From the NCBI GenBank assembly GCA_900234795.1, contig LT962688.1:2190001-2222000 (forward strand): a stretch of DNA of 32,000 nt, given 5' to 3'. Source of the stretch: Methylorubrum extorquens (GTDB taxonomy: Bacteria; Pseudomonadota; Alphaproteobacteria; Rhizobiales; Beijerinckiaceae). The notes below the pieces were generated by a model. It did not search any database. It was not told where the DNA came from and saw only the letters and a program-made list of their open reading frames with translations. Shown here piece by piece: positions 2,239 to 16,123 of the stretch; the stretch's first letter is position 1; each line of letters begins with the position of its first letter. A program made the translations under genes and the position numbers.

Positions 2239-5200
2239 ATGGCTCGCTTCTTCATCGACCGGCCGGTCTTCGCCTGGGTCGTCGCCCTCTTCATTCTGCT
2301 GGGCGGCGCGCTCTCGATCCCGCAACTGCCGATCGCCCAGTACCCGATCATCGCGCCCCCCGCGATCGCGCTCTCGACCTCGTATCCCGGCGCCTCGGTG
2401 GAGAATCTCTACACCGGCACGACGCGCCTCATCGAGGACGAGCTCAACGGTGCGGCCAACATCCTGAGCTTCGAATCGGCCTCCGACTCGTTCGGCGTGG
2501 TCGAGATCACCGCGAGCTTCCAGCCCGGCACCGATCCCGGCTACGCCGGCGTCGAGGTGCAGAACCGCTTGAAGCGCGTCGAGGCGCGCCTGCCAGCCGA
2601 GGTGCGCCAGCAGGGCATCCTCGTGGAGGAGGCCTCGGCTGCGACGCTGAACATCATCACGCTCGTCTCCACCGACGGGAAGACCGACGAGGTGGGGCTG
2701 GGCGACTTCCTGATCCGCAACGTCATCAACGAGATCCGCCGCATCCCCGGCGTCGGCCGCGCGACCCTCTACTCGACCGAGCGGGCGCTGCGGATCTGGA
2801 TTGACCCGGACAAGCTGCGCGGCCTCTCGCTGAACGCCGCCGACGTGACCAAGGCGATCGGCCGGCAGAACGTGCAGATCGCCTCCGGTGCCGTCGGCGC
2901 GCAGCCGTCGCCTGAGCGCCACGCCGTCAACTTCCCCATCATCGTCAAGGGGCAGATGACCGAGCCGGAGGCGTTCGGCGCCATCGTGCTGCGGGCGAAC
3001 CCCGACGGCTCCAACGTGCGCCTGCGCGACGTCGCCCGGATCGAACTCGGCGGCGACGACTACAAGTTCACCACCCGCCTCAACGGCGGCCCGGCGGCGG
3101 GCATCTCCGTGACGCTGGCGCCCGACGGCAATGCCATCGAGACGGCGAAGGCCATCCGCGCCAAGATGGTGGAGCTGTCGCAGTTCTTCCCCGACACGGT
3201 GAAGTGGGACATCCCCTACGACATCACGCCCGCGGTCGATGCCTCGATCGAGAAGGTGCTGCACACGCTGGTCGAAGCGGTGGTGCTGGTCTTCATCGTC
3301 ATGTTCGTGTTCCTCCAGAACATCCGCTACACCCTCATCCCGACCATCGTCGTGCCGATCGCCCTGTTCGGCACCTGCACCGTCATGCTGCTCGCGGGCT
3401 TCTCCGTGAACGTGCTGACCATGTTCGGCATGGTGCTGGCCATCGGCATCCTCGTCGATGACGCCATCGTCGTCGTCGAGAACGTCGAGCGCATCATGAA
3501 CGAGGAAGGGCTGCCCCCGAAGGAGGCGACCCGGAAGGCGATGAGCCAGATCACGGGGGCGATCATCGGCATCACCCTGGTGCTGATCGCCGTGTTCATC
3601 CCGATGGCGTTCTTCCCCGGCTCGGTCGGCATCATCTACCGGCAGTTCTCGATCGCGATGGTGACCTCCATCGCCTTCTCGGCCCTGCTCGCCCTCTCGC
3701 TCACCCCGGCCCTCTGCGCCACGATGCTGAAGCCGATCGAGAAGGGGCACGGTCACGCCAAGGGCGGCGTGTTCGGATGGTTCAACCGGTTCGTCGACCG
3801 GGAGACCGCCCGATACGGCCGCGGTGTGGCATGGTTCATCCGGAAGTCCGGCCGGGTGATGCTGATCTACCTCGTGCTGGTGGCGGGCGTGGCCTACGCC
3901 TTCATGCGCCTGCCCGAGGGCTTCCTGCCGCTCGAGGATCAGGGCTTCTTCACCGTCGATATCCAGACCCCGCCGGGCTCCTCCTTCAACCGCACGGAAG
4001 CGGCGGTGAAGAAGGTCGAGGATTATCTCCTGGCCCAGCCGGGCGTGGCGACGGTCACCGTCATCAACGGCTTCTCCTTCTCCGGCCAGGGCCAGATGAC
4101 GAGCCAGGCCTTCGTCACGCTCAAGCCCTGGAGCGAGCGTGACGCGGCGAATTCCGCCGCCAAGCTGGTCGAGGGCACCAACAAGGCGCTCGGGGGCTAC
4201 AAGGATGCCGTGATCCAGGCGCTGGAGCCGCCGCCGATCGACAACCTCGGCAACGCCTCCGGCTTCTCGTTCCGCCTGCAGGACCGGGCGCAGAAGGGCT
4301 ATTCGGCGCTGATGGCGGCCCAGGAGCAACTGCTCTCGCTCGCCCGCAAGAGCCCCGTGCTGACGAAGGTCTATGTCGAGGGCCTGCCGCCCGCGCCCGA
4401 GGCCGAACTCATCATCGACCGCGAGAAGGCGGCCGCGCTTGGCGTCGATTTCGAGGACATCAACAACACGATCCAGGTCAATCTCGGCTCGGTCTACGTC
4501 AACGACTTCCCGAATCGCGGCAAGATGCAGCGCGTGATCGTGCAGTCCGAGGATCTCCAGCGCCTGCACGCGGCGGACCTGTTGAACTACTCGGTCAAGA
4601 ACGCGCAGGGGACGATGGTACCGATGTCCTCCTTTGCCGACCTGAAATGGGGCGTCGGGCCGGCCCAGATCATCGGCTTCAACGGCTACCAGTCGGTGCG
4701 CATCACCGGCGATCCGGCCCCCGGCTACACCTCCGGCGACACCATCAAGGAGATGGAGCGGCTGATGACCTTCCTGCCGAAGGGCTTCGGCTACGCCTGG
4801 ACCGGCCAGTCGCTCCAGGAGAAGGAGGCGGGCTCCCAGGCCTCGCTGCTGCTGGCACTGTCGGTGCTGATCGTGTTCCTGTGTCTGGCCGCGCTCTACG
4901 AGAGCTGGTCGATCCCGATCTCCGTGCTGCTCGTGATCCCGCTCGGCGTCATCGGCTCGGTGGCGGCGGTGTATCTGCGCGGCATGCCCAACGACGTCTA
5001 CTTCAAGATCGGGCTCATCACGATCATCGGCCTGTCGGCCAAGAACGCGATCCTGATCGTGGAGTTCGCCCGCGACCTGTGGAAGCCCGGCACCAACATC
5101 GTCCAGGCGACGATCCAGGCGGCGACGCTCCGCTTCCGCCCGATCGTGATGACCTCGCTCGCCTTCATCTTCGGCGTGGTGCCGCTGGCGATTGCCACGG

Positions 5201-5452: not shown

Positions 5453-5839
5453 TCAGCCGAGCCAATCCGGCGCGACACCCGTGCAGGATGCGATGCGCTG
5501 CCGTTGCCCGTCGTCCGGATCGGCTTCCGCTCGCTCGAACCGGATGATGGCGTCTTGCGGGATGCCGGTGGCTTTCGAGAGGTCGGCCTGCGTGCCGCCG
5601 CCGTGAGCGCGGGCAGCCGCGACCGGCGAACCGTGTTCGACCACGAGCTTCACGAACCAGTGCGGTATCGCAGCAGGTTGCCCCGCTGCTTCCTCAATCA
5701 GGTACGCGTCCGTGATCCGTGCCGCGTCGCGATCCTCGGTCGCTTCGCCGTCGATGGTGGCGAGAAGGGCGTCGTACTCTCGTCGCGTCAGCACGACGAG
5801 TTCCTCGCCCGTTTCCGTTCTGATGATTTGCGGCTTCAT
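5453..5839 (-). CDS. type II antitoxin, C-terminal Xre-type HTH with a Phd/YefM-like N-terminal segment
   Basis: 128 aa. ATG is 15 nt downstream of the toxin stop, with GAGGGTG as RBS. N-terminus IIRTETGEELVVLTRREYDALL. C-terminal HTH GTQADLSKATGIPQDAIIRFERAE. Confidence 0.7.
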   Translation of the reverse strand: MKPQIIRTETGEELVVLTRREYDALLATIDGEATEDRDAARITDAYLIEEAAGQPAAIPHWFVKLVVEHGSPVAAARAHGGGTQADLSKATGIPQDAIIRFERAEADPDDGQRQRIASCTGVAPDWLG

Positions 5840-5854
5840 GGCTGCTGCACCCTC

Positions 5855-6097
5855 TCAGGTGTAGATGTCACGTCGGTCACCGATCGCAAAGACCGAGATC
5901 GTATCGCCAGTCTCGGTGAAGACCGCGCGGTAATCGCCGATCCGCAGCCGCACACCGGGCCGGCCAACCAGGGACTTCGTCGAACCCAAGCCGGTTGCCG
6001 CGTAGCGTTCCAGCTTCGCCAGGATATCGGCCTGCGCGGGCTTGGGGAGTTTGGTGAGGCTTTTGAGGGCAGCGGCTGTGTAGAGAATAGTCTTCAC
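5855..6097 (-). CDS. type II toxin, RelE/ParE superfamily
   Basis: 80 aa, GTG start. Characteristic C-terminal half VGRPGVRLRIGDYRAVFTETGDTISVFAIGDRRDIY. The toxin precedes the antitoxin (HigBA-like order). Confidence 0.75.
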   Translation of the reverse strand: MKTILYTAAALKSLTKLPKPAQADILAKLERYAATGLGSTKSLVGRPGVRLRIGDYRAVFTETGDTISVFAIGDRRDIYT

Positions 6098-6174
6098 GGC
6101 ATCGGCGTCGCAGGCATGCGCGCAAGAGTGCAGAGTCGCTCAGACGATGCAGCCGTAAAGTGCCGGCGCGGCGA

Positions 6175-8843: not shown

Positions 8844-9422
8844 ATGTGGGACAGCGTCTTCCGGGAACTGCGTCCGGGGCTGACCTCCAGCGAGGCGGAT
8901 CTCGCCCGCGCCGAGGCCGAGCTCGGGTTCCCCCTTCCCCAGAGCTACCGCAACTTCGCGCAGAGCTGCGGCGCCGGGCGGATCGGCGGGCATCTGCGCA
9001 TCTTCACCCCGGTTCCGGTGGAGGCGGCGGATCTTGGTTCGCGCGCGCACCTGATCTCGCACGGCGTGGCGCTCGCCCTCGACGGCCTGCGCGACGAGGA
9101 CAGCGACGAGCCGCACCGCTTCACCATCGAGGGTGATGCCGATGCCGGGCTGATGGAGCGGGCCTGCTTCTTCGGGCAGACCGAGCGGGGCGATTTTCTG
9201 TTCTTCGACGTGACGCCCGGCTTTCCCGAATACGACATCTGGGTGCTGTGCGCCGATCTGGAGACGGTGCATTTCGGCGGCGCTGACCTGCCCACCTTCC
9301 TGCGCGGGCTTCAGGGCCTTGAGATCCTGCACATCCTCGGCGACGGGGAAGGTCCGCTGCCCGCGACCTTCGTCGGCGACGACGCAGCGGCCCTGGAACA
9401 GCTCGGAGCGACGGATTCGTGA
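8844..9422 (+). CDS. SMI1/KNR4 (SUKH-1 superfamily) protein
   Basis: ATG at 8844 follows GGGAGGA (8831-8837). N-terminal SUKH-like motif [22 protein letters not shown]. About 192 aa. Its stop overlaps the ruvX GTG (GTGA). Confidence 0.65.
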
Positions 9423-11829: not shown

Positions 11830-12686
11830 TCCGTCCCCGCCTCGGCGAGCGCGACCGGTGCCGCCTCGGCGCCGTCGAGCACCGTGTCCTGCGCCGCCTC
11901 GGCGAGCAGGGCGTAGCCGCCATCCGCCATGTGCAGGCCGTCGCTGGCGAACAATTCGGTGCGGGTCAGCCGCCCCTGCCCGATCCAGTCGCGCATCAGG
12001 TCGGAGCGGCGGATCACCGGGACGCCGAGATCGGCGCCGAGGGTGCGCACCGCGTCGCGAAACCGGTCGGCGCCGGGCGTGGCGTCGAGCGTCGGGCACC
12101 ATTGCGGCTCCATCAGAACCACGTCGATCCCCGCTGCGCGGATACGCTCCAGCGCCGCCTCGGTCGCCTCGCGGAAGTGATCGAGGGAGACGCCGCGCAG
12201 GGCGTCGTTGCTGCCGGTCTGCCAGATCACGAGATCGGGCCGGGGCGCGATCACGTCCCGGTCGAGCCGGGCCAGCATCTCGTCCACCGCCTCGCCGCCG
12301 ATGCCGCGGTTGGCGACCGTGATCTTGCTGCCGAGATGCGGCAGGGCGCGCCGCAGCCCGGCTTCGAGGCGGGCGGGATAGGCGGCGGCCGGCGTCGAGG
12401 CGCCGATGCCTTCCGTCGAGGAGGAGCCGAAGGCGACGATGCTCAGCGGCCCGCCCAGCGCGATCTTCTGGGCGACGTGGGGAAGGCCGGCCGGGGCCGC
12501 ATCCTCGAACAGGCCGAGATCGAGGTCGAAGCCGAGATCGAGGTGTTGCGGCAGCAGGTCGGCGTAGGCGAGCACCGCGGTCGAGGAGAGGGTGAGGGCC
12601 AGCATCAGCGCCGTCGCGCCGACAAGCCGCCGCGGACGTCCCGTCGGGACCATCCGCTTCCGAGCCTGAGGAAGAAGCCGTACCAC
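11826..12686 (-). CDS. secreted SGNH/GDSL-family hydrolase
   Basis: Signal peptide LVGATALMLALTLSSTAVLAYA. Block I VAFGSSSTEG, block II NRGIGGE, block III WQTGSNDA, block V SDGLHM. Start is GTG 12686 or ATG 12653. Confidence 0.8.
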   Translation of the reverse strand: MVRLLPQARKRMVPTGRPRRLVGATALMLALTLSSTAVLAYADLLPQHLDLGFDLDLGLFEDAAPAGLPHVAQKIALGGPLSIVAFGSSSTEGIGASTPAAAYPARLEAGLRRALPHLGSKITVANRGIGGEAVDEMLARLDRDVIAPRPDLVIWQTGSNDALRGVSLDHFREATEAALERIRAAGIDVVLMEPQWCPTLDATPGADRFRDAVRTLGADLGVPVIRRSDLMRDWIGQGRLTRTELFASDGLHMADGGYALLAEAAQDTVLDGAEAAPVALAEAGTD

Positions 12687-12976
12687 CGTTCGAGCCCCCG
12701 CCCGCGGGCCACCTCGACCGGGGGGCTTCGCGGAATGACTGATATCGACCCTTCTAACCGAACCGAGGCCGGATTACGGCCCAATAATCGTGATTCGCCA
12801 CAGCCGCAATGCGCAGTGTTTGATGGAGTCTTAAGGGCGAGACTCGGATCAAAGATTTGTCGGTCATGGACGCCGCCCGTTCGACGCCGGCATGAAGTTC
12901 GGGGGCCGCGATCGAGCGCGGTAACGGCGCCGTCCTGCCCCGGCGTCATGGGCCTTTCCTCGCCGGATCGGCCGCG

Positions 12977-14173
12977 TCACGCCCGCGAAACCAGGGAGAC
13001 CGTCCCACTGCCGTGCCGCTCGATCCGGCCGTCGAGTTCGAGTTCGAGCAGCGTCGTCTGCACGATCCGAACCGGTAGGCCGGTGGAGCGGGCCAGTTCG
13101 TCGGTTCCGACCGGAGTCGGGCTCAGGCATGCGATCAGCCGCGCGCGGTCGTCCCGGGGCTCGGGGGGGGAGCCTCGATCGGCTCCGCCGCGGCGGGAAG
13201 CAGCGGCGGCGCGATCTCGGCTCGTCCGTCGAAATCGATCTCGTCCCAGTAATCGGGCGTGCGCCAAGTCTCGGAGCGGTCGTTCAGGCCGTCCGCCTGC
13301 GGCACGTCGCCGGCGATCAGCGGATCGAGCACCGACAGGACGTGCTCGACCTCCGAGACCAGCGTCGCGCCCTGGCGGATCAGGTCGTTGGTGCCCTCCG
13401 CCCGCGGATCGAGCGGCGAGCCGGGCACCGCGAAGACCTCCCGGCCCTGCTCCAGCGCGAAGCGGGCGGTGATGAGCGAGCCGGAGCGGCGCGCGGCCTC
13501 CACGATGACGGTGCCGAGGCTGAGGCCGGAGATGATGCGGTTGCGGCGGGGAAAGTCGCGCCCGCGCGGCACCCAGCCCATCGGCATCTCGGCGACCACC
13601 GCCCCACCCGCCCCGACGATCTCCTCGACGAGGCCGGCATGGTTCTCCGGATAGATCCGGTCCTGCCCACCCGCGAGGACCGCGACGGTGCCGGTGGTGA
13701 GCGTCGCCCTGTGGGCGCGGGCGTCGATCCCCCCGGGCGAGCCCCGAGACCACGACGAGACCGGCTTCGCCGAAGCCGCGGGCGAGCCGCTCGGTGAAGG
13801 CGAGGCCGGCGGTCGAGGCGTTGCGCGAGCCGACGATGGCCACCGAAGGCTTGAGAAGCGTGGCCGGATCGCCGCGAACGGCGATCAGCGGTGGCGCGGT
13901 GTCGGTGGCGTGCAGCGCCTTCGGGTAGGCCGCCTCGCCCATGGCGAGAAAGCGGATGCCGAGGCGGGCAGCGGCGGCCATCTCGCGCTCGGCCTCGGCC
14001 GTCGTGGGCGGTACGGCGCGTTTGCCCGCCCGCTTCGTCAGGTCCGGCAGGGCATCGAGCGCGGCCGACGCGCTGCCGAAGCGGTTGATCAGGCCGCGGA
14101 ATGTGCGCGGGCCGATGCCGTCGGTGCGGATCAGGCGCAGCCAATCGAGGCGTTGCGCATCGGTGAGCTGCAT
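12977..14173 (-). pseudogene. dprA: DNA-processing protein DprA, conserved core displaced by two opposite frameshifts at homopolymer runs (true pseudogene or sequencing error)
   Basis: ATG 14173 follows GGAGGGGG. The N-terminus (MQLTDAQRLDWLRLIRTDGIGPRTF ... VVVSGLARG) and the C-terminal winged helix ([43 protein letters not shown]) share one frame. The Rossmann core (IDARAH...[58 protein letters not shown]) is in another frame. The switches are at C6 (13729-13734) and G8 (13163-13170). Confidence 0.85.
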
Positions 14174-14204
14174 CGGTCCCCCTCCGTCCGGGAGGGGGCG
14201 GCGC

Positions 14205-14813
14205 TCACCCCTTCTTCCCGATCCGCCCCTCGGTGCCGGCGGCGAGTCGGCGGATGTTGGGCGCGTGCTTCCACCATAGCAAAGCTGCGAGCACGAGGAA
14301 GAGCGCTGCAACCGCTCCGTGTCCCAGCGCCCACAGGATGAGGGGCGTGGCGGCCGACGCCGCAAGCGCGGCGAGCGAGGAGTATTTCAGGGCAAAGGCG
14401 AGCCCGAGCCAGATCGCGGCGAAAGCGGCCAGCGTCACTGGGCTTAGCGCCAGCAACACGCCGATGAAGGTCGCCACGCCCTTGCCGCCCTTGAAGCCGA
14501 GCCAGACCGGGAACAGGTGGCCGAGGAAGGCGCCGAGCCCGGCGGCGAGCGCCGGCCCCTCGCCCCAGTGGCTCGCTGCGAGCACCGGCAGCGTGCCCTT
14601 GAGCGCGTCGCAGAGCAGCGTCGCGGCAGCCAGGCCTTTGCGGCCGGTGCGCAGCACGTTGGTCGCGCCGATATTGCCCGAGCCGATCGCCCGCACGTCG
14701 CCGAGACCGGCGAACTTCGTGAGGATCAGCCCGAAGGGGATCGCGCCGCAGGCATAGCCGAGGACGAGAGCCGCGATGAGGACCGGCCAGCCGGCCGCGA
14801 GAAGCGTGGTCAT
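14205..14813 (-). CDS. plsY: glycerol-3-phosphate acyltransferase (acyl-phosphate dependent)
   Basis: 202 aa. [15 protein letters not shown] and [16 protein letters not shown] are PlsY signatures. ATGA overlap with the upstream gene. Confidence 0.95.
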
Positions 14814-16123
14814 GCGGCCAGGGCCGAGAGGTCGGAGCGGTGGACGATGCGGCCGCCGACCAGCGTCAGCACCGCGGCGCCCTGGAGCCGGGCCTCGTCG
14901 AAGGGCGAGTTCTTGGAGCGCGACTTCAGCTGCCGCTTGTCGAGCAGGTAGGGCAGATCGGGGTCGATCAGCACGAGGTCGGCGGGCGCGCCCTTCTCCA
15001 GGCGCCCCGCCTCGCGGCCGAGCAGCGTGGCCGGGTTAGCCGAGAGGGCCTTCAGCAGCGTTCCTAGCGTCACGTCGCCGGTATGGAGCAGGCGAAGGCT
15101 CGCGCCGAGCAGGGTCTCGATGCCGAGTGCGCCGTCCGCGGCTTCGGCGAAGGGCAGGCGCTTGGTCTCGACGTCCTGCGGGTTGTGGTCGGAGACGATG
15201 ACGTCGATCACGCCTTCGTTCAGTGCGGCGATCACCGCCTGCCGGTCGTCCTCGCGGCGCAAGGGCGGCGAGAGCTTGCAGAAGGTGCGGTAGTGGCCGA
15301 TGTCACCCTCGTTGAGCACGAGGTTGTTGACCGAGACGCCGCAAGTGACGGGCAGTCCCGCCTCCTTGGCCCGCCGGACGATGTCGACGGAATCGGCACA
15401 GGAGATCATCGCCGCGTGGTAGCGCGCGCCGGTGAGGCGCACGAGGCGGATGTCGCGCTCCAGCATCACCGTCTCGGCCTCGCGGGGGATGCCGATCAGG
15501 CCGAGGCGGGAGGCCATCTCGCCCTCGTTCATCACGCCTTCGCCGACGAGGTCCGGCTCCTCGACATGCTGCATCAGCAGCGCGCCGAAATCGCGGGCGT
15601 AGGTCAGCGCGCGGCGCATCACCTGCGCGTTGGTGACGGCTTTCAGCCCATCGGTGAAGGCGACCGCGCCGGCTTCCGCCAGCAGGCCGAACTCGGTCAT
15701 CTCCCGGCCGGCCAAACCCTTGGTGATGGCGGCGGCCGGCAGGACGTTGACGCTCGCGGTGTCGCGGGCGCGGCGCAGCACGAAATCGACGATGGCCGGT
15801 CCGTCGATGACGGGGTTGGTGTCGGGCATGCAGACTAGGGTCGTCACGCCGCCGGCCGCCGCGGCAGCGCTCGCCGAGGCCAGGGTCTCGCGGTGCTCGG
15901 CGCCCGGCTCGCCGACGAAGGCGCGCAGGTCGATCAGGCCCGGCGCGAGGGTGAGACCCCCGCAATCGATCTTTTGGGCGCCCTCCGGTGCGTCGGGTGC
16001 GGCACCCCATGCGATGTCGGCGATGCGGCCGTCGCGCACGAGCACGGCACCGGGACCCTCGCGGCCGCTGGCCGGATCGAGGAGATGGACGTTGGAGAGG
16101 ACGAGCGCGCTCATGAGTGTCAC
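14810..16123 (-). CDS. pyrC: dihydroorotase-like protein, probably the non-catalytic PyrC' partner of aspartate carbamoyltransferase
   Basis: 437-aa amidohydrolase fold, ATGA-coupled to pyrB. The expected class I metal-ligand motifs look substituted: [10 protein letters not shown] instead of D-x-HVH-x-REPG, AFTDGL instead of AFSDDG, YHAAMIS, and SDHNPQ instead of DHAPH. Confidence 0.85.

Follow-up and report, generated by a model that had tools for sequence, protein, structure and literature searches.

Frame changes at homopolymer tracts inside coding regions are a feature of contingency loci, such as the phase-variable genes of Neisseria, Haemophilus and Campylobacter. They can also be produced by sequencing, and Watson and Warr reportedly showed in 2019 that indels at homopolymers in assemblies of long (ONT) reads lead to artefactual frameshifts and 'pseudogenes'. 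The gene considered here, dprA, codes in Methylorubrum extorquens for a DprA/Smf protein of 397 aa (KQQ15473.1 in strain Leaf121, WP_012254581.1 in PA1-type strains and C5AYG6 in AM1).

The window, by which we mean the whole stretch of 32,000 nucleotides that was analysed, comes from M. extorquens TK 0001 (DSM 1337, ATCC 43645), which we take to be the type strain of the species. Its dprA neighbourhood is organised as elsewhere in M. extorquens, with pyrB, a dihydroorotase-like gene, plsY, dprA and a GDSL lipase gene. Farther away, at about 5456-6100 on the minus strand, a ParE-like toxin (80 aa, weak Pfam match) and an HTH_3 protein (128 aa) are encoded between an RND efflux pump and gatA and form a putative toxin-antitoxin module. 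The TK 0001 genome is an assembly of 2018 and, according to the genome announcement, a single 5.71-Mb contig (LT962688). After correction of the MinION reads by Canu, the contig was assembled with smartdenovo, 'polished' with MiSeq data (2x150, coverage ~134x) and annotated in MicroScope.

In this record dprA is open from end to end, while the segment that codes for its conserved core lies in another frame. Judged from sequence comparisons, the deposited gene is very probably the product of homopolymer-length miscalls in the TK 0001 consensus, and the organism would carry a normal gene. The features to which we refer are the following.

12977-14173, minus strand: dprA as deposited, 1197 nt, 398 codons with no internal stop (frame analysis, Pfam)
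13729-13734, minus strand: frame switch 1, G6 on the coding strand (CGG GGG G ATC); G5 (CGG GGG ATC = R-G-I) in all same-lineage assemblies and in Leaf121
13171-13728, minus strand: out-of-frame core, 558 nt, coding for the DprA Rossmann core and linker (IDARAHR...EPIEAPP), as seen from frames, Pfam, TIGR00732 and GC periodicity
13163-13170, minus strand: frame switch 2, C8 on the coding strand; C6 (GCT CCC CCC GAG = A-P-P-E) in same-lineage assemblies and in Leaf121
12977-14365, minus strand: deposited CDS SOR29009.1, 462 aa, TTG start, 'protein of unknown function' (exact match)
13135-13581, minus strand: deposited CDS SOR29010.1, 'DprA (fragment)', 148 aa, in the core frame and overlapping SOR29009.1 (exact match)
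8936, plus strand: third discrepancy, T where C is found elsewhere (CTT vs CTC, Leu30, synonymous), in an SMI1/KNR4-family gene at 8847-9422
Presumed true dprA gene, minus strand: 1194 nt / 397 aa, as obtained by repair to G5 and C6

The ATG at 14173, which is preceded by GGAGG 8 nt upstream, opens the 398-codon frame that ends at 12977. This outer frame (frame 0) codes for the N-terminus of DprA as far as ...VVVSGLARG, for 189 residues that are not DprA (residues 149-337 as deposited, 70% of which are R, G, P or A), and finally for the C-terminus of DprA to the stop. The conserved core of DprA can be read through the middle segment in the +1 frame, to ...EAPPP. The two switches coincide with runs of C6 at 13729-13734 and G8 at 13163-13170 on the forward strand (G6 and C8 on the coding strand), exactly where the first-pass annotation had located them. 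Six homopolymer runs of at least 6 nt are present in the 32 kb, the longest being the G8/C8 of dprA, and the number of G/C runs of at least 5 nt is 43. In the annotated frame, the GC contents at codon positions 1/2/3 were 0.74/0.58/0.89 for the N segment and 0.74/0.55/0.82 for the C segment, as compared to 0.93/0.75/0.51 for the middle segment, which corresponds to a rotation by one position and is independent of homology.

We scored the protein families on the deposited gene and on a version in which the two runs were repaired to G5 and C6. The match to PF02481 in Pfam covered profile positions 4-84 of 212 with a score of 64.8 bits as deposited, and positions 4-211 of 212 with 229.5 bits after repair. 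Likewise, the TIGR00732 score was 51.7 bits as deposited vs 211.9 bits after repair, with a cut-off for this family of 191.15 bits. By both profiles, a full-length DNA_processg_A Rossmann domain in a single frame is missing from the deposited dprA and present in the repaired gene. DprA_N (PF21102, profile positions 1-64 of 64, E = 2.4e-26) and DprA_WH (PF17782, E = 4.7e-19) were matched in both versions; that is, the N-terminal HHH/SAM-like domain and the C-terminal winged helix are both present in the deposited outer frame. Pfam coverage, the TIGR00732 score and the rotated GC at codon positions are three lines of evidence that confirm the presence of the frame excursion in the deposited sequence. 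They bear out the earlier description of a gene with its N-terminal part and winged helix in one frame, its Rossmann core in a different frame, and about 190 residues of nonsense in the middle.

It had also been noted that the outer frame stays open for 462 codons, which is the case when the TTG at 14365 is taken as the start, and that an annotator would call an apparently intact gene. This is what the record contains: the outer frame was deposited as SOR29009.1, which is identical in sequence to UniRef100_A0A2N9ANV0, and the core was additionally flagged as SOR29010.1, which extends from a Met at 13581 to a TGA at 13135 that is produced by the C8 run. Relative to the orthologous ATG at 14173, SOR29009.1 is over-extended by 64 codons, and the extension (14174-14365) enters the 3' end of plsY (14205-14813, minus strand). 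The two products as deposited (462 aa and 148 aa) were found in one NCBI/UniRef record and on one contig each, and for the 462-aa product the search for encoding contigs gave no gene beyond the NCBI entry.

Repair to G5 and C6 yielded a protein of 397 aa (...IEAPPEPRDD...) that is identical to KQQ15473.1, the DprA of Methylobacterium sp. Leaf121, and the exact protein was recovered from 26 contigs. Based on this exact match, the window carries one extra base at run 1 and two extra bases at run 2, a net difference of +3. The first-pass annotation had suggested that one base fewer at the first run and one more at the second would restore a DprA of about 398 aa. The first half of this proposal holds (G5), but the second run is two bases too long rather than one too short, and the restored protein has 397 aa, not 398. 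The alternative repair to G5 and C9 (398 aa) was absent from a collection of 15 billion proteins by exact look-up, whereas the G5 and C6 repair was present.

About 25 independent run assemblies (Logan) of the same lineage jointly span positions 1-32000 of the window and are 100% identical to it except at three sites: an extra G at 13729, two extra C at 13163-13164 and a C to T difference at 8936. The Logan assemblies that contain the exact 397-aa protein are ERR2849800-17, ERR2822809, ERR2831471/504 and ERR2660577-82, to which Leaf121 is added. Tract-length variation, for which the first-pass annotation had proposed to look among isolates, was not observed in the approximately 25 same-lineage assemblies, all of which have G5 and C6. 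The intact DprA was present in 27 sample blocks as compared to 25 for the neighbouring efflux pump of 1054 aa, which indicates that there is no sizeable group of lineage runs without an intact dprA.

The strain Leaf121 served as an outgroup, with 12 SNPs over the 21.2 kb compared and further substitutions elsewhere. In agreement with the lineage assemblies at all three sites, Leaf121 shows G5 and C6 in the two tracts and C at 8936, and the states in the window are thus private and derived. Another genome, CP021054.1 (9 substitutions over 18.5 kb), covers only the first tract of the three sites and has G5 there. At 8936, the T is private to the reference and situated in a C-run context, CCCCCTCCCCC, with C in every same-lineage assembly, and probably represents one more residual error of the consensus. 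The three discrepancies span no more than 4.8 kb, each in the context of a G/C run, and the other 27 kb are perfect; the remaining four 6-nt runs and roughly 40 5-nt runs of the window are concordant with the lineage assemblies. Just outside the window, beyond position 1, Leaf121 encodes a 2OG-Fe(II) oxygenase of 340 aa (3649-4671 of the compared piece). A +1 change (GG to GGG) breaks this gene into 57 + 251 aa in the short-read assemblies of the TK 0001 lineage (1087-2012 of the compared piece), which is probably a real strain difference.

From their near-identity to the window, the three matching accession series and the approximately right number of sample blocks, we infer that the ERR runs are derivatives of the same TK 0001 stock, generated in a continuous-culture evolution study by the same laboratory. 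In that study, four adaptation steps were sampled, with six isolates of TK 0001 per step sequenced with MiSeq, along with populations, and the data were deposited in PRJEB27428, PRJEB29054 and PRJEB29055. The 24 isolates, from up to 855 generations, had 3-13 mutations genome-wide (5.7 Mb). Three differences common to all isolates are listed in Table 1 of the study (metY, an ATPase-like gene and dxs), and dprA is not listed. The gene labels 'TK 0001_v2' used there suggest a revised reference. The supplementary files of the study contain no mention of dprA, plsY or frameshifts, and no statement on errors in the reference was found in a later TK 0001 paper or by a full-text search for LT962688. 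A PF01053 gene located directly beyond the edge of the window encodes H as residue 34, invariant among the runs, and the published mutation is MetY T34M; either this gene is not the published metY or it is numbered differently.

These data bear on the pseudogene that the first-pass annotation had listed among its explanations. If the deposited allele were genuine, the reference clone or culture would truly have had G6 and C8, dprA would be a pseudogene, and the evolved isolates would descend from an intact sub-line. Such an allele is conceivable in that homopolymers are also true mutational hot spots and that dprA possibly carries real lesions in other M. extorquens (GCA_977887135.1/SRR34479653 and ERR1103852, described below), from which it follows that the gene may be dispensable in this species. 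However, it would require three private changes in 4.8 kb, as compared to the 3-13 changes seen genome-wide in the isolates, and there would have been no selection for a second, frame-restoring +2 after the core had already been destroyed. Furthermore, dprA is intact in about 25 runs from the same laboratory and DSMZ stock, the link to the stock being presumed, the table of wild-type differences has no entry for dprA, and the lesion, which occurs in a single record, was not reproduced in the independent data from the lineage. We therefore consider a genuine double-frameshift allele very unlikely.

We also examined whether the frame structure has a counterpart in relatives. A protein search retrieved about 8,000 DprA homologues, the closest of which were M. 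extorquens proteins of 397 aa, and all 28 members of the 90% cluster were 397 aa in size and single-frame. DNA alignment of seven relatives (two Methylobacterium, four Microvirga and a MAG with an amino-acid identity of 88%) showed a single-frame dprA in all, with CGC/CGG-GGC/GGG-ATC at the first site. Neither the two-frame architecture nor the shift sites were present in any of these orthologues (7 aligned relatives and 28 cluster members), and the comparison with orthologues that had been suggested earlier thus gave no parallel to the window. The same observation argues against recoding, in which G6 and C8 would be real and each of the two runs would be overcome by transcriptional slippage or a programmed ribosomal frameshift to give full-length DprA. 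Recoding would also need two efficient shifts per mRNA and is at odds with the unshifted gene in the same lineage; the sole point in its favour is that both switches are on slippery homopolymers, and we regard it as extremely improbable. Two observations were made in passing on these loci. A DprA of 442 aa from a JGI metagenome has a tandem duplication of 45 aa (...DEIVGA twice) in the Rossmann domain, which is either an assembly artefact or real. In GCA_029504475.1, topA (12171-14898 of the compared piece) is in two pieces of 737 + 190 aa vs 910 aa in all other loci, a likely frameshift or assembly error.

Three further cases of broken dprA genes were found via truncated relatives in the DprA protein cluster. 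The dprA gene in the Logan assembly of SRR21970170 has a C5 tract, and comparison with CP110131.1, the finished genome of the same strain, showed no mismatches in 5.8 kb and four 1-base deletions (at 1026, 1315, 1467 and 1492 of the compared piece), all located in 6-nt G/C runs and one of them in the dprA C6 tract. This pattern is the signature of long-read-style homopolymer undercalls, by which we take the deletions to be technical and the C tract of dprA to be error-prone. In the Logan assembly of ERR1103852, which is 99.9% identical to Leaf92 (6 SNPs in 7 kb), dprA (3447-4639 of the compared piece) lacks one C in the CCC directly before the G5 tract, at gene position 439. The repaired protein is the same as the DprA of Leaf92, and the missing base may be either a real lesion or an error. 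The third case is a 2-bp deletion in GCCGCGCGCC (GCGCGC), at dprA gene position 678-679, that is common to GCA_977887135.1 (CDWLER010000004.1) and the Logan assembly of SRR34479653 (3259-4450 of the compared piece in both). Only a winged-helix fragment of 149 aa was called in GCA_977887135.1 (CAO4144521.1). No difference separates these assemblies over 7.2 kb, and the lesion may therefore represent a genuine pseudogene.

Indels at or beside the two tracts have thus been seen in three data sets (the window, the C tract of SRR21970170 and next to the G tract in ERR1103852), as might be expected from slipped-strand phase variation, which was the third explanation offered by the first-pass annotation. 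The tracts would in that case be contingency repeats that toggle DprA and hence the capacity for recombination and transformation. The ancestral tracts are, however, just 5 and 6 nt long in a window with many such G/C runs, and the first corresponds to CGCGGC in PA1/AM1-type strains (6 of 20 species loci), which consequently have no run at this site. A scan of metagenomes for G5 or G5+N at tract 1 recovered only two distant contigs (80-83% identity), both with G5. Moreover, the tract lengths were invariant in the approximately 25 same-lineage assemblies across hundreds of generations, the state in the window represents two simultaneous changes that still give no functional product, and the indel in SRR21970170 is accompanied by three more deletions in 6-nt runs within 500 bp, a technical signature. 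Phase variation is therefore highly improbable. Given the indels at or near the same tracts in unrelated data sets and the other broken dprA genes, we nevertheless assign a slim chance to the dprA tracts being unstable in M. extorquens cultures, in which case G6/C8 would be truly present in the DSM 1337 stock and stocks of one strain would differ in their DprA state. If this were true, dprA would be a recombination-mediator gene with a cryptic on/off state or a tendency to decay.

Two run-length miscalls in the consensus remain the best explanation, as the first-pass annotation had also favoured on grounds of parsimony. The lesions are on homopolymers, the assembly was made on the MinION platform, which is prone to run-length errors, and G5, C6 and an intact 397-aa DprA are found in about 25 assemblies and Leaf121, these data being independent of the reference and, presumably, from the same stock. 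It is almost certain that the organism itself has no such frame excursion, and we infer that the states private to the reference have a technical origin and did not arise by mutation in the clone that was sequenced. In this scenario, one extra G:C pair would have been introduced at 13729-13734 (true G5) and two at 13163-13170 (true C6), and short-read polishing would have failed locally, leaving residual errors of a 2017-era nanopore consensus. With errors that sum to +3 nt in DNA of 73% G+C, the wrong frame is free of stops and the gene looks intact, and the annotation pipeline would then have called the 462-aa 'protein of unknown function' and the overlapping 'DprA (fragment)'. CcrM methylation motifs (GANTC), which were inspected as a cause of systematic nanopore errors, are absent from the two run sites. 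The DprA of the organism would be an ordinary protein of 397 aa with an N-terminal HHH/SAM-like domain, a Rossmann domain (DNA_processg_A) and a C-terminal winged helix; by homology with characterised DprA proteins, it is assumed to bind ssDNA and to load RecA.

Two points count against miscalls. Deletions are commoner than insertions among ONT homopolymer errors. In addition, that both indels are in one 1.2-kb gene and sum to a multiple of three would be a coincidence with a chance of a few percent when one window is considered. If residual errors occur at about 1 per 10 kb, as extrapolated from the three events, the whole genome should contain dozens of close pairs, so that one such coincidence somewhere in a 5.7-Mb genome is unsurprising, and exactly those cases would be noticed in a first reading. 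Extrapolated in the same way, the three discrepancies in 32 kb hint at several hundred residual errors genome-wide in LT962688.

The biology of the locus is ordinary, its product being a standard DprA already known from the databases, and the practical point is one of data quality. LT962688 and UniProt A0A2N9ANV0 contain a 462-aa protein with about 189 nonsense residues and an N-terminus that is 64 codons too long, along with an overlapping 'fragment' CDS. Homopolymer errors that cancel in frame evade pseudogene detectors based on stops or truncated length and can thereby seed databases with chimeric sequences. The case is a warning that chimeric CDSs with an intact appearance are present in a widely used reference genome.

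Compared to the DprA/Smf proteins of M. extorquens, the repaired window protein is of the same size (397 aa), has the same three Pfam domains and differs at 5-17 of the 397 residues from the other species members compared (about 96-99% identity). The deposited version is set apart from them by the nonsense at residues 149-337 and by a CDS start 64 codons too early. Compared to contingency loci, dprA likewise changes frame at homopolymer tracts in the coding region, but its tracts are short (5-6 nt), not conserved and invariant in clonal isolates, and the off state requires two changes. As in the known ONT homopolymer artefacts, the lesions in dprA are exactly on G/C runs, in a MinION assembly with short-read polishing, and are missing from the short-read assemblies of the same lineage. 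Unlike most such artefacts, which are deletions, the errors in dprA are insertions, and unlike the usual outcome they cancel each other (+1 and +2), which leaves the CDS free of internal stops and intact in appearance.
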